A model generated the notes under the pieces. The model was not told the DNA's origin. It made no database searches and saw only the letters and a program-made list of their open reading frames with translations. 10,936 nt of DNA from Chloroflexota bacterium (lineage in GTDB: Bacteria; Chloroflexota; Anaerolineae; Caldilineales; Caldilineaceae), in NCBI GenBank assembly GCA_026389895.1, contig JAPLGZ010000191.1, forward strand, positions 1 to 10,936, in the 5' to 3' direction. Shown here piece by piece: positions 2,110 to 10,346 of this stretch. Made by a program: the position numbers and the translations under genes. Numbering within the stretch: position 1 is the stretch's first letter; each line of letters opens with the position of its first letter.

Positions 2110-2982
2110 TTATCGAAAGAGTAATCCGTCATGTTGTCTCCGCTGTGCATAACGGCGATAGACGGCCAGCAAGGCAATGACAATGGTCGTGATGATCATC
2201 CCAATGGCCATCGCGGTCGGACGCTGCTGCAAGTCGGGATCGATGTAGGCGCGGTAAGCCATCACCGGCAAGGTGTTCGGGTATCGTTGCCCCAATAACA
2301 AGGGCACCTCAAAACTGCCAAACGTGTAGGCAAAGACGATCACCGAAGTTGAGACAAGGCCAGGCATGAGCAACGGCAACAGGATGTAGCGAAAACGCTG
2401 CCATGGATTCGCGCCGAGTGTACGCGCCATCTCTTCATATTCTTGGCTCACCCCACGGAGCACCGCCAATACCACCAACCCAATAAAAGGGGTCTCTTTC
2501 CAGACATAGACGAGGATCGTGGCCACATTCCAACGATCAAAGACCAACACGGGAAATTGCGCCGGTTGCGTCAGCCAGCCCACGCTGTAGATCAGGCGGG
2601 CGAGCAACCCACTTTGGGTGAGCAAGAGAACAAAGCCTGCGGCCGCCACCATATGTGGCACGGGCAGTGGAATTTGAAAGATCAACGTGACCAGACGATG
2701 GCCATAAAAATTTTGGCGCAAAAGCAACGCTGCGGCCACCGCCAACACCATAGCAAGGCCAGTGCTGACCAAGGAGATATAGAGCGTCAGCAACAACGCA
2801 GAACGAAAACCCTCATCGGTTAAAACAGCCAGGTAATGGCGCAGGGTGGGCACTCGCAACCCAATCACCGGCATATAGTCAAGACTTTGCCCTAACCCCA
2901 CCACAACGCCGCCCACAAAGAGGAGGAGGATAACGGCGAGTGCGGGGCCAAGCATGAGTGTGAGGCGTAATTGGTTAGGCAT
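2110..2982 (-). CDS. ABC transporter permease (first transmembrane subunit, PotB-like position)
   Basis: 290-aa hydrophobic protein with a permease EAA-like motif (EEMARTLGANPWQRFRYILLPLL). ATG at 2980-2982. No obvious Shine-Dalgarno; a perfect hairpin lies just upstream. Confidence 0.85.
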   Translation of the reverse strand: MPNQLRLTLMLGPALAVILLLFVGGVVVGLGQSLDYMPVIGLRVPTLRHYLAVLTDEGFRSALLLTLYISLVSTGLAMVLAVAAALLLRQNFYGHRLVTLIFQIPLPVPHMVAAAGFVLLLTQSGLLARLIYSVGWLTQPAQFPVLVFDRWNVATILVYVWKETPFIGLVVLAVLRGVSQEYEEMARTLGANPWQRFRYILLPLLMPGLVSTSVIVFAYTFGSFEVPLLLGQRYPNTLPVMAYRAYIDPDLQQRPTAMAIGMIITTIVIALLAVYRRYAQRRQHDGLLFR

Positions 2983-3000: not shown

Positions 3001-3043
3001 GTGATGAATGATGAGTGATGTATCAACTCACTCATCATTCATC
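3001..3043 (-). promoter_or_regulatory. Perfect intercistronic stem-loop (17-bp stem, 9-nt loop) between the binding-protein gene and the first permease gene
   Basis: Positions 3001-3017 (tgatgaatgatgagtga) are the exact reverse complement of 3027-3043 (tcactcatcattcatca). Located 7 nt after the SBP stop (3050-3052) and 18 nt before the permease ATG. Not followed by a U-tract on the transcribed strand. This is the typical position of mRNA-stabilising or attenuating hairpins that raise SBP:permease expression ratios. Confidence 0.55.
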
Positions 3044-3049
3044 AGCTGA

Positions 3050-4324
3050 TTACTTTTTTAACACATTCGCCGTCCAACCATCATCAATGGGCTTTACCCA
3101 GCTCGCGCGCGCTTCGGGAATGGCGTGGCTGCTCAACACATCGGAGGGTAAGGTAGCCACGCCACGCGGTGTCTTCGCCAGTTGCGCCTGCTCTTCAGCG
3201 CTCAGGCGCGTCGGGTCGATGGCCACCATCCATCCAAGCCCCGTCTCAGGATCGGTCAGGGCGATCTGATAGTCGGGCGAAGCGAGCAAATTGGCTAAGA
3301 CCAGCGCGCCCGCCGGATTATTGGCATTATACGGGATCCCGACATAGCTGACATTAGCCAGGGTGCCGCTATCAAAGACAAAGGTGCGCATACTATCGGG
3401 ATATTGGCCGGACTTGATGTAGGTCGAAGCGCGGTTAGCGTCATATTCCATATTAAAGTCGATCTCACCATTTGCGATCAAATCGGTCATCGCCGCCAAC
3501 TCAGGATAGGTGTCGCCGGCATGCCACAAATTGGGCTTAATGGCGTTCAAATAATCCCAGACTTGAGGCGCCACTTTGTCATAGGCGGCCTGGTCAAATT
3601 CTTGCAGAAAAATATCTGGGCTGCCTGCCGCCCAATAGAAAAGCTGCCGTACAAAGGCGCTGCCCACATGATTGGGCGGTGCTGGATAGGTAAAACGGCC
3701 AGGGTGTTGCGCGATCCAGGTTTTTAAGGCCTCAAAAGTCTTGGGCGGGGTTTGGACATTTTTGGTATTATACTCCATCACCCATTGAAAACTAGCCCAG
3801 GGCGCTTCGTAACCGTCCACCTTTTGGCCGAAGTCATAGGCCAGCGCGGGGTTATCCCAATTAACAAATTTGCGATTGGGCAGTAGGTCGGTAAAAGGCC
3901 CATAGAGTAGATTGGCCTCCTTCAACGTGCGAAAGTTTTCGCCGTTGATCCAGATCAGATCGATGCTACCGCCGTGCGCTTTGCCCGCCGCCTTTTCATT
4001 CAGCACTTTGTTGACCGCGTCGGCCGTATTTTCCACCGGCACACGATTTAGGGTAATGCCATATTGCTCCTTGAGGGGACCACCAATCGCCGTATCCACA
4101 TGTGCGTTGATCGTGTCTGAGCCGCCCCACATAAACCAATTAACCGTGGTCCCTTTGGCGGCGCTCAGCACATCGTCCCAGTTTGTATATTTGGGCACAG
4201 TTGTCTGTGGGCTCGGTTGCGAGGCATTGCCCGTAGGTTCGGCTGGTGCAATACAACCAGTCAGCAGTGTGATGACAACAACCAACACCAGGCTTGCAAA
4301 AGTCAGCCGTTTTTTAAACAACAT
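3050..4324 (-). CDS. ABC transporter substrate-binding lipoprotein (extracellular solute-binding protein, family-1-like)
   Basis: N-terminal signal peptide with lipobox LLTGC (MLFKKRLTFASLVLVVVITLLTGC). 424 aa. Shine-Dalgarno GGAGA lies 6 nt upstream of the ATG at 4322-4324. First gene of the SBP-permease-permease-ATPase operon. Confidence 0.85.
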   Translation of the reverse strand: MLFKKRLTFASLVLVVVITLLTGCIAPAEPTGNASQPSPQTTVPKYTNWDDVLSAAKGTTVNWFMWGGSDTINAHVDTAIGGPLKEQYGITLNRVPVENTADAVNKVLNEKAAGKAHGGSIDLIWINGENFRTLKEANLLYGPFTDLLPNRKFVNWDNPALAYDFGQKVDGYEAPWASFQWVMEYNTKNVQTPPKTFEALKTWIAQHPGRFTYPAPPNHVGSAFVRQLFYWAAGSPDIFLQEFDQAAYDKVAPQVWDYLNAIKPNLWHAGDTYPELAAMTDLIANGEIDFNMEYDANRASTYIKSGQYPDSMRTFVFDSGTLANVSYVGIPYNANNPAGALVLANLLASPDYQIALTDPETGLGWMVAIDPTRLSAEEQAQLAKTPRGVATLPSDVLSSHAIPEARASWVKPIDDGWTANVLKK

Positions 4325-4399: not shown

Positions 4400-4560
4400 C
4401 TTGTCGCAACAGAATTTGACGTACTCCCGCGACTCAAGTCGAGGGATTCTAGGGTCAGACGGCAATTGCTGTACGAGACAGTCTGACATCGCCTAACCTA
4501 AGAGAAGACGCCCCTTCTCTATGAATATTTAGAGCAGCGTTTAGATCACGGTTATGGATA
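4400..4560 (-). ncRNA. Predicted TnpB guide-RNA (omega/reRNA) locus: 3' end of tnpB plus the right-end region
   Basis: By analogy with characterised TnpB systems, the omega RNA derives from the tnpB 3' end and the right end of the IS. This stretch is rich in hairpins: GTCAGAC-N20-GTCTGAC at 4454-4487, spanning the tnpB stop and enclosing the palindrome GCAATTGC; GTTGCG-N20-CGCAAC at 4385-4416; and the right-end hairpin at 4426-4445. Transcript ends are not determinable from sequence alone. Confidence 0.3.
4426..4445 (-). repeat. IS right-end subterminal hairpin (cccgCGACTcaAGTCGaggg)
   Basis: Imperfect hairpin whose core CGACT/AGTCG and downstream GGATTCT match the left-end hairpin at 6094-6120 in the same orientation. 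Confidence 0.5.
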
Positions 4561-5603
4561 ACACCACAACCAGGACAAGCCCATTGCCGCTCAGACAGTT
4601 TCAAATCATGCTTAATATGGCCGCAGTCAGAGCAAGTCTTGCTCGACGGATAGAAACGATCAATCAGATGAACAAGCTTACCTTTGGTGGATGCAACATA
4701 CCCCAAAATGCCCATGAACTCAGAACGAGCAAGGTCGCCTACTTGGCGACCCCACAGGGCTTCGGGTACCCTCTGGGTGCCCTTCATGTTCAAATCTTCA
4801 AAGTACAGTTGATCGAACTTATCGGTCAATTCGTGGGCCAGCGTGAAGAACCAATCACGGCGCTTGTTGACCACCGTCTGATGAATGCGCGTGACAACCA
4901 TTCTGGCTTTCTTCCATCGACCGGAAAACTTGACCTTGCGGGCCATGTTTTGTTGAGCAAGTTTCAATTCGGTCATTGCTTCCCGAAAGTACAACGGGCT
5001 TTCAATATCTTCACCGATGGATGGTTTCAAGAAGACTTTCAGACCAAAGTCAAAGCCTGCGCTGTTACCCGTCATAGCCTGATTGATTTGGCTTGTTTCT
5101 TCTTGCACCACAAAGTAGAGATAGAGATGGCCCAACGTATCCCGCTTGACTGTAACTGTTTTAACAGCGAGTGGGATGTCACGACTCTTGCTAAACTTGT
5201 AAACCATGCCCTGAATATAGATTTTGTTGCCGTCCAACAACTTCCAGCCAGCTTGCTTCAAGGTGAACGACGTATAGCGTTTGACTTTCTTGAAACCTGG
5301 CGGGGATGTTCTAACCTTGCGCTTAAGATTGCCGAAGAACAGTTTATAGGCTTTGTCAATGCGTTGCGTGATGTCCTGAATCGCCTGGCTACCTACCTTG
5401 CCCCAATACGCGTACTTAGGCAGCTTCTTGAGTTTGGCAAGATGTTTTTGCAAGTCGTACAGGTTCAAGCTTTTGCCAGTCAACTTGTAGTAGCGCCGAT
5501 GCAAAGCAATGGCATGATTCCAGATAATCCCAGAAATGTCGATCTGCTGATGCAGGTGCTTATTCTTTTTCGACTGGTAGAGTTTGAACTTGTACGTTCG
5601 CAT
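4455..5603 (-). CDS. tnpB: TnpB (IS605 OrfB-family RNA-guided endonuclease)
   Basis: 382 aa. Has RuvC-I (AGFDFGLK), RuvC-II (TLAHELTDKFD with Glu), a zinc finger CSDCG...CPGCG, and RuvC-III (HNRDLNAALNI). The catalytic D/E/D residues all appear present. The start overlaps the 3' end of tnpA, as in IS605-type elements. Confidence 0.9.
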   Translation of the reverse strand: MRTYKFKLYQSKKNKHLHQQIDISGIIWNHAIALHRRYYKLTGKSLNLYDLQKHLAKLKKLPKYAYWGKVGSQAIQDITQRIDKAYKLFFGNLKRKVRTSPPGFKKVKRYTSFTLKQAGWKLLDGNKIYIQGMVYKFSKSRDIPLAVKTVTVKRDTLGHLYLYFVVQEETSQINQAMTGNSAGFDFGLKVFLKPSIGEDIESPLYFREAMTELKLAQQNMARKVKFSGRWKKARMVVTRIHQTVVNKRRDWFFTLAHELTDKFDQLYFEDLNMKGTQRVPEALWGRQVGDLARSEFMGILGYVASTKGKLVHLIDRFYPSSKTCSDCGHIKHDLKLSERQWACPGCGVIHNRDLNAALNIHREGASSLRLGDVRLSRTAIAV

Positions 5604-6000
5604 TGGTTCTTCTGTTCTTCGATATAACGTCTAATCGTTTCGGCTGAAATATGCCCAACCGACTCCCAATAATACGAACGAGTCCAGAGGGTAGGTAGAC
5701 CAGATTTGAGTTTAGGAAACTCAGCGCGAAGCTTAAACGATGAATAACTTTTTAGTTGCTGTATGATGTAATGCGGCCCATGAATCGGTTTTGTTTTCAC
5801 AAAGAGATGCACATGATCAGGCAGGATTTCCATCGTATCGATAATCAAGCCAAGTTCGGTTGCCTTCTCACTCAACAGTTCTTTTAACCTGCTTGCAACC
5901 TGATCAACGAGCACTTTGCGCCGATACTTTGGAGACCAAATCGATGATAACCAATGTTATAAACTGCCTTATTGCTAGTGATCCAACGTTCGTTTATCAT
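5480..6000 (-). pseudogene. tnpA: IS200/IS605 TnpA (Y1 HUH transposase) with a 1-nt frameshift near codon 19. The longest intact ORF (5480-5914) starts at an internal GTG
   Basis: The 144-aa ORF has the HUH motif (DHVHLFV) and the catalytic Tyr region (RSYYWESVG). Immediately upstream in the same frame lies IWSPKYRRKVL (consensus VWCPKYRRKVL), preceded by a stop. The missing N-terminus (ATG at 5998-6000, MINERWITSNKAVYNIGYH) is in the +1 frame. The two frames join at GGT TAT CAT | CG ATT TGG (around 5942-5946). One extra nucleotide there would restore YH-x-IWSPKYRR. The result could be a genuine inactivation or a sequencing error. Confidence 0.6.
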
Positions 6001-6093
6001 GACAGAAGGATACCAGAATATTATACATCGTCAAATAGATAATGTTTTGGCGTATACTATCAACTTCCAAAGCCAGCAGGCTTTGCCGCATTC

Positions 6094-6120
6094 ATCCTAC
6101 GACTAAAGTCGAATTAGGAT
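6094..6120 (-). repeat. IS left-end subterminal hairpin (atcctaCGACTaaAGTCGaattaggat)
   Basis: Outer stem ATCCTA/TAGGAT and inner stem CGACT/AGTCG. The same core motif occurs at the right end. Lies about 95 bp upstream of the tnpA start. Confidence 0.5.
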
Positions 6121-6145
6121 TTCTGCGGGTAGGATCGTAAAACAG

Positions 6146-6191
6146 GCTAAAGGCTTTACAAATACAACTGTAAAGCCTTTAGCGTTTTGTT
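6146..6191 (-). terminator. Intrinsic terminator of the flotillin gene. The perfect 15-bp stem is bidirectional in appearance
   Basis: 6146-6160 (gctaaaggctttaca) is the exact reverse complement of 6169-6183, with an 8-nt loop. On the minus-strand transcript the stem is followed by CUGUUUUAC. On the plus strand it is followed by GUUUUGUU. It starts 22 nt after the flotillin stop codon (6206-6208). Confidence 0.55.
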
Positions 6192-6205
6192 ATGCGACTC
6201 CACCT

Positions 6206-6502
6206 CTACGCGGCCGGCTTCTCACCCGCATCATTCTTCTTGTCCTGTTGACTGGCCGCCAGACTTGCGTAAATCTGATTGCGCAGCGCCTCCACCTGCG
6301 GCGAACGGACCGCATTGGCGTCGGGGTTGACCGACACGCCCATCCGATCAGACAACAGGATCGCCAGCAACCCTTGCATTAAGTTGTTCTGGCTGCCGTC
6401 CTGACCGTTGCCACCACCACCGCTGATTACGACGCGGGGCACTACGTCCACACCGGCCACTTGAATCGCCTCGGCGAAACGATTCATCACTTGTTGTGTC
6501 AC
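6206..6502 (-). CDS. C-terminal fragment of flotillin-family protein, out of frame with the upstream ORF because of a 50-bp duplication
   Basis: The 98-aa ORF starts at GTG. Its first 10 residues (MTQQVMNRFA) repeat the end of the 599-aa ORF. The remainder (EAIQVAGVDVVPRVVISGGG...) matches the conserved flotillin C-terminal tail pattern (..LP.IA...PL....V.V.SG..). No ribosome-binding site of its own. Confidence 0.6.
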   Translation of the reverse strand: MTQQVMNRFAEAIQVAGVDVVPRVVISGGGGNGQDGSQNNLMQGLLAILLSDRMGVSVNPDANAVRSPQVEALRNQIYASLAASQQDKKNDAGEKPAA

Positions 6503-6571
6503 CTGGTATTGCGGGCCACCACGGCGAAACGATTCATCACTTGTTGTGTCACCTGGTATTGCGGGCCACCA
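6472..6571. repeat. Perfect 50-bp tandem duplication (2 x cggcgaaacgattcatcacttgttgtgtcacctggtattgcgggccacca)
   Basis: 6472-6521 is identical to 6522-6571 base for base. The flanking bases differ (6471 t vs 6521 a; 6522 c vs 6572 t). 50 is not a multiple of 3, so the second copy shifts the reading frame of the gene it lies in. Confidence 0.95.
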
Positions 6572-8298
6572 TAAGCACGCACCTGTTCTTCGACGGCAAT
6601 GGCTTGGGCGATACCGATACGGGCATTCTTTTCGGCTTCGGCTTCGGCCAATGTACGAATTTGCGCTGCCATTTGCAAGGCTCGTTGATATTCAGCCTTG
6701 CCTTCGTTGCTCTGCACCGTAATGCTCAGTTCAGACTCGGTGATCTTGGTCTGTTGTTGCGTGCGGGCCTGCGCTTCGCGCAACTCACGTTCCTTGACCG
6801 AGGCCGCCTCTTGCCGGGCATAGGTTTCGATCTGCTCCTCGGCGATCTGGCGCGAGCGCAACTGCATCAGAATGTTCTCGATCTGTGTATCCCCTGGAGG
6901 CGAGGTGGGGGTGCCGATCAATACTTCTTCTAGTTCCAAATTGTAGCGCGCAAACTTCTCTTTCATCTCCTGGCTAGAAATATTCTGAATATTGCTGCGA
7001 TCCTGAATCAACTGAATCAAGGTGCGCGTCTGGCCAATATTTTTGAAGTAGGCGGCCACCAACGGGTCAAGCGTCTGCTCAACCAGACGTTTGATATCAC
7101 CAAAGCGTTGGATCACCAGCGGCGCTTTGCGATAGTCGATGTGCACCACCACCGACAGCGGCAACAGCGGTTCAAAGGCGTCTTTGGTGATCAGCGAAAT
7201 CTCGGCCAAATTCTCATCAAAACGATGCGCCCCGACTTCGTTGCGATTCCATTTGAGGATGATATTCGTGGTCGGCACGGTAATCACCTTGCCGGCATAG
7301 GTGTTGAAGGCGTATTTGCCGGGCAGCAATGGCTCGTCCCAAACGCCGCGATTGCCACGGCTCACCATCTCACCATGTTTATAATCGGCACCCGACAGAT
7401 CTTCGCCTACCCCACCCGTGTAGGAGATCACCACACCGGCATTACCGACTTCGATAATCGTCTTGGGGATGCGCTCGACAGTCGCGAAGAGCCGGTTGAT
7501 ATAATAAGTGCCTTCGACCACGACCTGCAATTGGCGACCACGCATACCGCCAGCGAGCAAAAAGCGATCGGCGTCTTGAAACTTATTGTGATAGGTAGAC
7601 TCATCACCGACATTGTCGCCGACCACGGGCGCAATGATATCGCCCTGGTGCAGCGACGGACCATCATGCACTGTCACAATGCCGACCGAATCTTCGTTGT
7701 CTTTGATCACGACGGGCGTAAAGCCGCTGCGATCGGAGATCAGGCTGGCCATCTGCTTGACAATCTCTTCTTCCTCGCGGCTGATCGAGAGTGAATAGAC
7801 CTTTTCTGCCGTGAGCACGACAAACTGCGCCAAATTGATCGCATAGGTGCCTTCGCGCAAGATCATGCGTTGCGGGCCGCGCGTGCCGCCATCGCGCATA
7901 AACGCCGTCACATCTTGAAAATCATGGGCTGTGACATTCGACGCCAAGGCTTGCGTCGCGCTCAATGGCTGGCCATCACGCGCGAACACATAACCGATGC
8001 GGCCTTGCGGGATCGTCACCAACGGGGCGCGGTGTACGGCATACTGGAACGGCGGTAAAAAGTGGATGCCACCACGCAGCAAATTAGGCTGAAAACCGGC
8101 TTCGCCATTGAGCGCAATAAAACCCGACTTGATCGATCCGCGCGCGCTCCAACGCTTCTCGACGATCCCTACGCGCGTATTCGGGATAAAACGGATCCAC
8201 GACGCAAGGACGATCAACAACACGAACAGCACAACTGCCACCAAAATCAAAGTTGCCAATACTCCAAACATTTTCCATTTCCCTTTCGCTCGGCGCAA
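6499..8298 (-). CDS. Flotillin-family SPFH/band-7 protein (YqiK/FloT-like), N-terminal 592 residues, prematurely terminated by the frameshift. The likely true start is the ATG at 8269-8271 rather than the TTG at 8296-8298
   Basis: N-terminal TM helix (MFGVLATLILVAVVLFVLLIVLASW), then an SPFH-like domain, then a long EA-rich coiled-coil region (EAQARTQQQ...AEAEAEKNARIG) typical of flotillins. Ends ...NRFAVVARNTR*, where VVARNTR is frameshift-derived. The ATG at 8271 is preceded by AAAGGGAAA. The TTG at 8298 has no Shine-Dalgarno. Confidence 0.85.
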   Translation of the reverse strand: MRRAKGKWKMFGVLATLILVAVVLFVLLIVLASWIRFIPNTRVGIVEKRWSARGSIKSGFIALNGEAGFQPNLLRGGIHFLPPFQYAVHRAPLVTIPQGRIGYVFARDGQPLSATQALASNVTAHDFQDVTAFMRDGGTRGPQRMILREGTYAINLAQFVVLTAEKVYSLSISREEEEIVKQMASLISDRSGFTPVVIKDNEDSVGIVTVHDGPSLHQGDIIAPVVGDNVGDESTYHNKFQDADRFLLAGGMRGRQLQVVVEGTYYINRLFATVERIPKTIIEVGNAGVVISYTGGVGEDLSGADYKHGEMVSRGNRGVWDEPLLPGKYAFNTYAGKVITVPTTNIILKWNRNEVGAHRFDENLAEISLITKDAFEPLLPLSVVVHIDYRKAPLVIQRFGDIKRLVEQTLDPLVAAYFKNIGQTRTLIQLIQDRSNIQNISSQEMKEKFARYNLELEEVLIGTPTSPPGDTQIENILMQLRSRQIAEEQIETYARQEAASVKERELREAQARTQQQTKITESELSITVQSNEGKAEYQRALQMAAQIRTLAEAEAEKNARIGIAQAIAVEEQVRAYGGPQYQVTQQVMNRFAVVARNTR

Positions 8299-8669
8299 TT
8301 TTAGGTCAAATTTTTGACGTTGTTAGCCTTTGGCCAGTGCGGAGCGCGATGAACAGCATAACCGATCCCAAACACATTTGCCTGACAAAAACAGCCCAGC
8401 CAGCGGACAGCCAGCGACGCCAACCGAGAAAAGGGCGCCCACAACTGGACGCCCCAACACAGGAGCGCATTTTAATTTGTACTATACTTTGAGGCAGACT
8501 GTAGTAACTGTGTCGGGCAACCTTCATTATGCGCCTCGCAGGTGCCGCGTGCAAATTTGTTACTACGGCCTATAAATATCAACACGTAGTGCCATAGTAG
8601 TGTGCCGCGTGATACAATAAGTAAACGTTATAAGTCAAGGTCACCAACCGGCCAAGAAAGGAATTACCT
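8299..8669. promoter_or_regulatory. Divergent promoter/regulatory region between the flotillin (-) and LOG (+) genes
   Basis: Palindrome GTCAAA-tt-TTTGAC at 8305-8318 lies just upstream of the flotillin start. Candidate -10 TATACT is at about 8483-8488. An extended -10 TGaTACAAT at 8610-8618 lies 52 nt before the LOG start. A 10-mer GTGCCGCGTG is repeated at 8542-8551 and 8602-8611. An 8-bp inverted repeat GTAGTAAC (8501-8508) / GTTACTAC (8559-8566) flanks 50 nt. Which of these sites is bound or functional is inference. Confidence 0.3.
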
Positions 8670-9479
8670 TTGGGAAAAAAATCCGCTAGCCCAGCGCAAC
8701 CCAATCCTACACTGAATCGCGCCGCCCGTGCCAAAGCGGCAACACAAGATGAAAAACTGCTCGCTACGCCTGAGCCCACGCCCCCTCCGTTCACGGAAAC
8801 CGACACCTGGCGCGTCTTGCGGATTACGGGAGAATTTATCGAAGGGTTTGACGCGCTCTCCACCTTAGGCCCTGCGGTCACGCTCTTTGGCTCGGCACGC
8901 ATCCAGCCGAACGATCCGATGTATGCAGCCGCGGTTGAGACAGCGCGCTGTCTCGCCGAGTCCGGCTTTTCGATTATCACAGGGGGTGGTCCAGGCATTA
9001 TGGAGGCAGGCAATAAAGGGGCGCAGTTAGGCGGCGGCGTCTCGGTGGGCCTGGGCATTGAGTTACCCTTTGAACAAGGCATTAATGCCTATGTGCAAAT
9101 TCCCGTCAACTTTCGTTATTTTTTTGTCCGCAAAACGATGTTTGTGAAGTATGCGCAAGGGTTTGTGATCTTTCCCGGGGGCTTTGGCACCCTGGACGAA
9201 ATGTTTGAAGCGCTGACCTTGATTCAGACCGGCAAAATCCGGGGGTTTCCGCTCATTCTCTTTGGTTCAGCCTACTGGCAAGGTCTGCTTGATTGGCTGC
9301 GCAACACGCTCCTGGCCGAAGGAAAGATCGCCGAACCAGATCTTAATTTGATTAAAGTGACCGATTCGCCCGAAGAAGTGTGCGCGATCATTCACAAGGC
9401 AATGGCAGAGGATAACGGATTTGTGCGGCAAGAAGCGGCAGCCCGTGAAGTGACGCGTCAAGTGTATGAGAGCGAATAA
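8670..9479 (+). CDS. LOG-family protein (TIGR00730; cytokinin riboside 5'-monophosphate phosphoribohydrolase-like / nucleotide N-glycosidase), long form with an N-terminal Pro/Ala-rich extension
   Basis: Has the LOG motifs GGGPGIMEAGNKGA and PGGFGTLDEMFEALTLIQTG. The TTG start at 8670 has AAAGGA 7 nt upstream. The start is uncertain. The conserved domain begins near residue 70. Confidence 0.8.
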   Translation: MGKKSASPAQPNPTLNRAARAKAATQDEKLLATPEPTPPPFTETDTWRVLRITGEFIEGFDALSTLGPAVTLFGSARIQPNDPMYAAAVETARCLAESGFSIITGGGPGIMEAGNKGAQLGGGVSVGLGIELPFEQGINAYVQIPVNFRYFFVRKTMFVKYAQGFVIFPGGFGTLDEMFEALTLIQTGKIRGFPLILFGSAYWQGLLDWLRNTLLAEGKIAEPDLNLIKVTDSPEEVCAIIHKAMAEDNGFVRQEAAAREVTRQVYESE

Positions 9480-9485
9480 GGACTC

Positions 9486-10250
9486 ATGAAAAATCAACCT
9501 ACTCAGATCCAGGCAATGCTGCCCAGTTCCACAACAGGGGCAGCCCCGCTCATGGATTGTTATCTGCCCACCCCAGCGCAACGTAATGGCGTTGGTTTGA
9601 TCATCTTTCCAGGCGGCGGCTATGGCGGCCACGCCGAGCACGAAGGGAAAGGATATGCTGACTATTTTGTGGCGGCTGGCATCACTTGCTTTGTCGTGCG
9701 CTATCGCCTTGGTTCGGCAAATTTTCGACACCCAGCCATGCTCGAAGATGCATTGGCCGCGCTTTACACCGTCCGCCAGCGAGCCAGTGAATGGGGTCTT
9801 GATCCCAACAAGATCGGCATAATGGGATCATCAGCGGGCGGGCATCTGACCGCCCACACCCTCGTGGCCTATGATCGCTACGCCAGCGACATCGCTTTGC
9901 GCCCAAATTTTGGCATCCTCTGCTATCCGGTCATTGCGATGACGGGGCCGTATTGTCACACGGGTTCACGGGCGAACCTGCTGGGGGCCGATGCAGACGA
10001 AGCCTTAATGCTTGATGTCTCACCCGAACGACTCGTCACGGCGCAAACGCCGCCCTGCTTTCTCTGGCACACGGTGGAAGATGCGGCGGTGCCAGTCGAA
10101 AACAGTCTGCTCTTTGCCACCGCGCTCCGCGCGCATGGGGTAGCGTTTGAAATGCACATCTATCCCACAGGCCGCCACGGCTTGGGTCTCAATACCGACC
10201 TCGCTTGGGCCAGCGCGTGCCTGCGCTGGATTGCTGAAGTCACTGCGTAG
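9486..10250 (+). CDS. Alpha/beta-hydrolase fold esterase (GxSxG serine hydrolase, HSL/BD-FAE-like)
   Basis: Has the nucleophile elbow GSSAGGHL, an oxyanion-region motif FPGGGYGGH, and a C-terminal His in GRHGLG. The ATG is 7 nt after the LOG stop, with AAGGA 3-7 nt upstream. Probably co-transcribed with the LOG gene. Confidence 0.8.
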   Translation: MKNQPTQIQAMLPSSTTGAAPLMDCYLPTPAQRNGVGLIIFPGGGYGGHAEHEGKGYADYFVAAGITCFVVRYRLGSANFRHPAMLEDALAALYTVRQRASEWGLDPNKIGIMGSSAGGHLTAHTLVAYDRYASDIALRPNFGILCYPVIAMTGPYCHTGSRANLLGADADEALMLDVSPERLVTAQTPPCFLWHTVEDAAVPVENSLLFATALRAHGVAFEMHIYPTGRHGLGLNTDLAWASACLRWIAEVTA

Positions 10251-10288: not shown

Positions 10289-10346
10289 CCCAATACTTCT
10301 CACCCATCCCCGTTAGCTATAACGGGGATGGGTGAGAAGTATTGGG
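10289..10346. repeat. Perfect 27-bp-stem / 4-nt-loop palindrome (cccaatacttctcacccatccccgtta gcta taacggggatgggtgagaagtattggg)
   Basis: Every one of the 27 positions pairs (10289-10315 with 10320-10346). Sits 38 nt after the esterase stop in a convergent intergenic region. Flanking U-richness is only modest (GCUUGUGUG on plus). Could be a bidirectional terminator or a dispersed palindromic element. Confidence 0.6.

Follow-up and report, generated by a model that had tools for sequence, protein, structure and literature searches.

Flotillin/SPFH cage proteins, among them eukaryotic Flotillin1/2 and bacterial HflK/C and FloT/YqiK, are built from an N-terminal anchor, a Band_7/SPFH domain and long Glu/Ala-rich helices, followed by a short conserved strand-like motif and then by C-terminal helices. 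In the flotillin cage, the parts after the wall helix, namely the cap helix, the beta-strand barrel and the CTD, close the narrow end (PMC11260169). The gene described here encodes a protein for which a similar succession of elements is predicted, and it is split by a short, perfect tandem duplication. The capsule genes of pneumococcus are a described case of duplication-based phase variation (Waite et al. 2001, 2003, as cited in PMC4022640); in cap3A, cap8E and tts, a spontaneous perfect duplication within the ORF switches the gene off and its precise loss would restore it, as would hold for the present gene. Errors on record for metagenome assemblies include duplicates at scaffold joins, repeats in the wrong number and identical stretches strung together artificially (Chen et al. 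2020, PMC7111523). With IDBA-UD and metaSPAdes, the overlaps of scaffold ends are typically n or n-1, where n is the largest k, and the documented scaffold-join error leaves Ns (PMC7111523).

The duplication lies within a stretch of 10,936 nt from a Caldilineales (Chloroflexota) bacterium, which was analysed as a whole and is referred to as the window, and it falls in the 3' quarter of a strongly conserved gene. Positions 6472-6521 and 6522-6571 had been described as identical in an earlier note on this DNA, and this was confirmed with TRF (period 50, 2.0 copies, 100% matches, score 200), by direct reading and by string comparison. The period-50 identity covers exactly 6472..6571, so that there is no microhomology at either edge of the duplication, the nearest edge match being a CC at 6469-6470 and 6519-6520, followed by a mismatch. 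It is the sole direct repeat of at least 16 nt and at least 90% identity in the window, and a chance origin, at about 4^-50 per position, is excluded. On the minus strand, each copy contains 16 codons (GGPQYQVTQQVMNRFA) with a single base on either side. The copy that is read first in the coding direction (6522..6571, minus strand) is in the native frame, encodes (Y)GGPQYQVTQQVMNRFA and is identical to the single copy found in L082, a contig from a conspecific strain. The copy that is read second (6472..6521, minus strand) is out of frame when entered from upstream, where it yields VVARNTR and a stop, and in its native frame it forms the start of a stranded tail ORF. At the junction of the two copies, TTGCGGGCCACCA is joined to CGGCGAAACGATT, and the 32-mer spanning this point is GGTATTGCGGGCCACCACGGCGAAACGATTCA.

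Since 50 is not a multiple of 3, the reading frame shifts after residue 583, VVARNTR is added, and a stop follows. The result is a truncated SPFH/flotillin-like ORF at 6499..8271 on the minus strand, which encodes 590 aa (native residues 1-583 plus VVARNTR) and closes with a premature TGA at 6501-6499; the longest version of this ORF, 6499-8298, ends in QQVMNRFA-VVARNTR and the stop. The ATG at 8271 is the start that is also called in the conspecific protein P0123. The truncated ORF comprises the N-terminal hydrophobic helix, an unmatched region of about 270 aa, the Band_7 domain and predicted long Glu/Ala-rich helices; its product retains the native sequence as far as residue 583, to which 7 foreign residues are appended, and lacks the last 88, in agreement with the view that it would be devoid of the C-terminal tail. 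The stranded 3' part of the gene occupies 6206..6502 on the minus strand, with 98 codons from GTG 6502 and 93 from ATG 6487; it begins with VTQQVMNRFAEAI and continues through the conserved tail, EAIQ-VDVVPRVVI, a Gly-rich stretch and NLMQGLLAILLSDRMG. Its GTG overlaps the upstream TGA stop in the tetranucleotide GTGA (6502-6499). This downstream ORF had been said to restart the gene; its position is right, and its start codon is merely the native-frame valine GTG. Removal of one copy left a single ORF, which has 680 codons when counted from TTG 8298 and encodes 671 aa when counted from ATG 8271. The earlier note had predicted both this continuous ORF and the splitting of a gene of about 671/680 aa into two ORFs by an out-of-frame duplication, and both statements hold. 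The 3' end of the gene is otherwise intact, with a terminator-like hairpin (6146..6183, minus strand; 16-bp stem and T-rich tail) that begins 23 nt past the native stop at 6206. Just 5' of the start codon, a weak sigma-70-like promoter match, CTAACA-17-TAAAAT, is present at 8298..8326 on the minus strand, a match to the consensus only. For annotation, the two ORFs should be recorded as one disrupted gene, or the contig corrected, and not as two proteins.

The repaired 671-aa protein matched PF01145 (Band_7) over residues 272-483 with E=4e-18 and 66.5 bits against a cut-off of 23.6, and its orthologues have a precomputed PF01145 assignment; their names in the source databases are SPFH domain-containing protein, flotillin family protein and YqiK. 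Residues 1-26, MFGVLATLILVAVVLFVLLIVLASWI, are hydrophobic throughout, as in an N-terminal membrane anchor, and in an AlphaFold2 model built with 60 orthologues a helix at 2-24 is the only region with a pLDDT above 80. The same low-confidence model, with a mean pLDDT of only 50, predicts helices at 463-515, 522-566 and 569-589, and an AEAEAEK motif is present. The Chloroflexota family to which the protein belongs is very large: all 8,000 of the 8,000 scored candidates had E<=1e-10, and the best 120 of them measure 643-709 aa. NCBIfam gave no match at E<=1, the Pfam Flot domain was absent from the C-terminal 239 aa at E<=10, where just one chance-level DUF match appeared, and neither the sequence itself nor a profile of 60 sequences retrieved a relative from the PDB. 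The label SPFH/flotillin-like is justified. The description of the tail as that of a canonical flotillin was not upheld, as PF01145 is the only match detected and a Flot domain, an NCBIfam model and a PDB relative are all lacking; the tail is nevertheless strongly conserved within the Chloroflexota family.

Between the anchor and Band_7, residues ~27-270 belong to a conserved region of about 270 aa that has no Pfam or NCBIfam match. This region likewise had no PDB relative by sequence or profile, and the AlphaFold2 model from 60 sequences reached a mean pLDDT of only 50. The SPFH family that carries it, with thousands of members in Chloroflexota, appears to be structurally uncharacterised.

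The ancestral state of the gene was sought among its relatives. The repaired protein is 95% identical to P0001, 97.9% to P0121 and 99.7% to P0123, and relatives of this type, at 95-99.7% identity and from Caldilineales metagenomes, are uninterrupted. Among 123 related proteins, all of 643-709 aa, the motif YGGPQ[YF]QVTQQV[ML]NRFAEAI was found once in 113 and twice in none, the remaining 10 carrying variants of the motif that the search pattern missed. Nor did it occur twice inside one gene in any of the first 81 related loci; one of them, L051, has it at two distinct places some 5.9 kb from each other. A junction pattern made degenerate at wobble positions had no match in the 81 loci or in the JGI metagenomes, and a 24-mer of the duplicated unit was likewise without a match in both sets. 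The closest relatives are syntenic contigs of Caldilineales or soil-metagenome origin. Over window positions 6213-9190, the conspecific L082 (Logan contig, SRR20698643) is 98.5% identical to the window, with 45 differences in 2,928 aligned bases, and contains exactly one copy of the 50-nt unit, with the same sequence. L083 (85%) and L001 (82%) also have one copy each and show a clean 50-nt gap against the window; in the alignments with L082, L083 and L001, it is the copy at 6472..6521 that appears as the insertion. An even closer strain, L084 (Logan run SRR20698640), is 99.93% identical, and its contig ends at window position 8117, short of the duplication. The alignment with orthologues that had been suggested as a check thus gave one copy and one continuous ORF in all of them, including the 98.5%-identical L082, and, as judged from these comparisons, the single-copy frame is shown to be ancestral.

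Neither the protein in its truncated, repaired and tail forms nor the products of two nearby ORFs had an exact match in a collection of 15 billion proteins, a search of E. coli genomes gave no match, and searches with the tail and with the C-terminal fragment for a recurrent hot spot returned only contig-end fragments. L086, a 621-nt scaffold, ceases to be homologous to the gene at the scaffold's 5' end. The P0134/L087 contig has many split genes and is full of frameshifts. A distant, high-GC homologue, L085 (positions 1-200; ENA ERZ27268075 k141_477507), has an in-frame TAG inside the conserved motif, which reads YGGPRY-stop-LTQQVMARFAEAV, and its gene is called from the Met after this TAG; this single case, which has no connection with a duplication, may reflect either a genuine nonsense mutation or an error of sequencing. 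A recurrent hot spot of disruption was rejected, given that the other disrupted homologues have unrelated causes (the nonsense codon of L085, the error-rich contig of L087).

The substitution pattern bears on the age of the lesion. In the comparison with L001, residues 1-583 have a dN/dS of 0.03 and the tail has one of 0.04. Against L082, the whole gene has 33 synonymous codon differences, one real non-synonymous difference (N663D) and one at the terminal residue, and the stranded tail has 12 synonymous codon changes and one non-synonymous change, plus the terminal residue. These counts, compared at the codon level, show that the tail was under purifying selection until recently. A tail left untranslated over any appreciable share of this divergence would have mostly non-synonymous changes, and the frameshift is therefore either much younger than the 1.5% strain divergence or not real. 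The duplication is a one-off, either a very young event or an assembly error, and it is a lesion of an ordinary kind. The approach has some value as a method, in that a conspecific contig together with synonymous and non-synonymous counts can date such a lesion without reads.

The last 266 nt of the gene were also seen to be more divergent from L082, at 6.4% against about 1.2% before them, with nearly all of the differences synonymous, and homology disappears completely just past the stop codon. The rise at 6206-6380 suggests recombination around the variable downstream locus.

If the duplication is real, the truncated product would keep the anchor in the membrane, the SPFH domain and the predicted long helices. 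The 88 residues that would be lost include the end of the predicted helix 569-589, which follows the coiled coil and would lose its second half, and the invariant, strand-like VDVVPR motif, together with a Gly-rich linker and two terminal helices that are predicted in the low-confidence model. Invariant alignment columns in the lost part are E584, A585, V594, P595, L618 and L622, along with many nearly invariant ones. In flotillin and HflK/C cages, what follows the wall and cap helices seals the narrow end and helps the protein to oligomerise; by analogy, the truncated allele should be null or crippled, with a defect in assembly. Weak translation of the tail ORF might result if ribosomes reinitiate at the GTGA overlap or, 13 nt further on, at ATG 6487, and nothing points to selection for such reinitiation. 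Precise loss of one copy by recombination or slippage would restore the gene, as a by-product of the repeat and not as an evolved switch.

We favour a genuine spontaneous duplication that is the majority allele in the assembled population, and we assign this reading a probability of about 0.5. It would have originated by a replication template switch or by slippage without microhomology; both the reality of the duplication as a mutation and the effect of the truncation on the protein are what we infer. The window is free of Ns, and six of six neighbouring genes are intact, with lengths that match those of their orthologues within 1 to 6 residues, in contrast to the error-ridden L087. The strain of L084, 99.93% identical to the window, was assembled independently in another data set, SRR20698640. 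The mismatches between the window and L082 that lie nearest to the junction are at 6380 and 6667, the first on the tail side being 92 nt from the unit. Moreover, the 100-nt structure is shorter than a normal read, and de Bruijn assemblers would therefore need real junction k-mers to produce it, which by this reasoning argues against an artefact. Several considerations weigh on the other side: the two-copy state is known from this one sequence, the window's proteins are absent from the collection of 15 billion, neither the unit nor the junction pattern turns up in the JGI metagenomes, the round length of 50 nt could be an overlap or k-1 value set by software, the absence of microhomology at the edges makes the duplication less typical of slippage, and a gene with a dN/dS of 0.03 is one in which a frameshift should hardly become common.

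An error made during or after assembly is the strongest competitor, and we regard it as a serious candidate that falls somewhat short of even odds. Contig ends with a shared 50-nt overlap, such as k-1 with k=51 or the value of a fixed minimum, could have been joined untrimmed, or the second copy could have come in when gaps were closed or contigs merged or polished; in either case the organism's own gene would be intact and encode 671 aa. Such an origin would account for two perfect, directly adjacent copies of exactly 50 nt, a round length that resembles an overlap or k-1, and for the lack of microhomology; the two-copy state is confined to this one sequence, the assembly of the conspecific L082 has a single copy, and duplicate sequence at scaffold joins is among the known errors of metagenome assembly (PMC7111523). 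The strong purifying selection on the gene, tail included, makes the intact gene the expected state and also favours an artefact. The junction, however, contains no Ns, unlike the documented scaffold-join error, the rest of the window is clean with its neighbouring genes intact, and strain identity does not change across the junction. A chimeric join of two strains at this point was rejected, as the rise in divergence from L082 begins at least 92 nt from the unit and grows toward the variable downstream locus, where all pairs of relatives are more divergent.

The duplication could also belong to an evolved, reversible ON/OFF switch, in which gain and precise loss of the tandem duplication would toggle a flotillin-like scaffold by phase variation; we consider this very unlikely. 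Perfect tandem duplications within an ORF that shift the frame and revert by precise excision are a known mechanism of phase variation (Waite et al. 2001, 2003, as cited in PMC4022640). One-copy (L082) and two-copy (window) states do occur within one species. Any perfect 50-nt tandem repeat is intrinsically unstable, and this too counts for a switch. Against it stands the lack of a second instance in the 123 related proteins, in the 81 loci or, with the wobble-degenerate junction pattern, in the JGI metagenomes; the other disrupted homologues owe their state to unrelated causes (a frameshift-ridden contig in L087, a point nonsense codon in L085), and nothing in the local sequence, be it a repeat tract, a hairpin or a motif, would make duplication more frequent. 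It is just as unlikely that a real reversible ON/OFF allele is segregating in a natural Caldilineales population, with two copies in the window and one in L082, and possibly with a two-piece protein made through the GTGA; if true, an uncultured bacterium from the environment would be using duplication-based phase variation on a protein that organises membranes. Of the three explanations originally put forward for the duplication, a recent event and an assembly artefact both stand, and the dedicated reversible switch is left unsupported by a duplication that recurs nowhere.

Least probable among the functional readings, and hardly to be expected, is a two-piece protein, in which a 590-aa body and a tail of 93-98 aa would both be made, by termination-reinitiation at GTGA or at ATG 6487, and would reassemble through the duplicated helix; equally hard to credit is the corollary that the gene has been split rather than inactivated. 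The overlap of stop and GTG (GTGA, 6502-6499), a Shine-Dalgarno-like AGGTGA hexamer that, on reading the sequence, ends 11 nt before ATG 6487, and the presence of the duplicated 16-residue segment in both pieces would fit such a route. The arrangement is found in no relative, however, the GTG is just a native valine codon, the spacing to the ATG is suboptimal, and related strains yield no short tail-only proteins except contig-end fragments. The zero divergence of the copies would also have left no time for selection to act on a two-piece arrangement.

Some further mechanisms were rejected. Programmed ribosomal frameshifting finds no X XXY YYZ slippery site among the 7 codons read out of frame, GTG GTG GCC CGC AAT ACC AGG TGA, and the arrangement, from the same reading, is not conserved. 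A hairpin or other secondary structure as the trigger was discarded, as the predicted DNA folding of all four junction segments was no better than that of shuffled sequences (z ~0 to 2); a 7-bp inverted repeat, TGAATCG/CGATTCA (6462-6486), is present at the left edge of the duplication. Involvement of an IS200/IS605-family element in the duplication was set aside too, given its location downstream of the gene's stop codon at 6206. To our knowledge, the IS200/IS605 family makes no target duplications.

This element occupies approximately 4416-6202, between the flotillin-like gene and an ABC-transporter operon. It encodes TnpB (4455-5603, minus strand), with OrfB_IS605 and Cas12f1-like TNB domains, and TnpA (5480-5914, minus strand), a Y1 transposase (PF01797). 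Its GC content is 42-49%, against 52-58% in the flanks, and small similar hairpins lie near both of its ends, CGACTCAAGTCG at 4430-4441 and CGACTAAAGTCG at 6100-6111. Relative to L083, which has only about 139 nt at this place, the element is an insertion; the same intergenic spot contains a PIN-domain gene and a 261-aa ORF in L001 and yet another ORF in L082. These differing contents in the window, L083, L001 and L082 mark the intergenic site as a variable hot spot.

Other features of the window were recorded along with the element. A perfect 27-nt inverted repeat with a 4-nt loop is found at 10289-10346, about 40 nt past an alpha/beta-hydrolase gene (9486-10250), and is probably a strong terminator or another structured element; L084 has an inverted repeat at the matching position. 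A second perfect inverted repeat, of 17 nt with a 9-nt loop, lies at 3002-3044 in a short gap of the ABC-transporter operon, flanked by the solute-binding-protein gene (3050-4324, minus strand) and the first permease gene (2110-2982, minus strand), and could form an intra-operon mRNA hairpin. A LOG/SLOG-type 'lysine decarboxylase-like' gene (8670-9479, plus strand; 269 aa) is conserved and syntenic in L001, L083 and L084. Antisense to it, a 167-aa ORF (8579-9082, minus strand) had no family match and no database record, and is probably spurious and not a gene. A search of the window against Rfam gave no match.

If the favoured reading of a genuine duplication is correct, the window would add another case, of little biological weight, in which a non-essential scaffold gene has recently lost its function, and would indicate that a strongly constrained SPFH protein of Chloroflexota can be lost in nature. 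The practical value of the duplication is that of a flag for annotation and quality control.

Set beside the described systems, the window protein departs from the flotillin/SPFH cage proteins in its N-terminal region of about 270 aa without a family match; it is also without a Flot, NCBIfam or PDB match by sequence, and its structure model is poor. In Streptococcus pneumoniae, many independent duplications recur in the same capsule gene, populations are mixed and reversion has been measured (Waite et al. 2001, 2003, as cited in PMC4022640), whereas the window presents one event in one sequence, with no recurrence in relatives. With the join-error assemblies of Chen et al. 2020 (PMC7111523), the window shares an exact, short head-to-tail duplicate that breaks a gene intact in relatives, and a length that fits a k-mer-sized overlap; it differs from them in a junction without Ns and in a contig without any other error or strain switch. 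The remaining comparison is with frameshifted genes and young pseudogenes that arise from short out-of-frame tandem duplications. The window case, which comes from a single metagenome-type sequence and is without flanking microhomology, shows no essential difference from these: as in them, a perfect head-to-tail copy whose length is not divisible by 3 lies within the ORF, a premature stop follows a few codons later, and the remainder of the gene is recognisable and undecayed.
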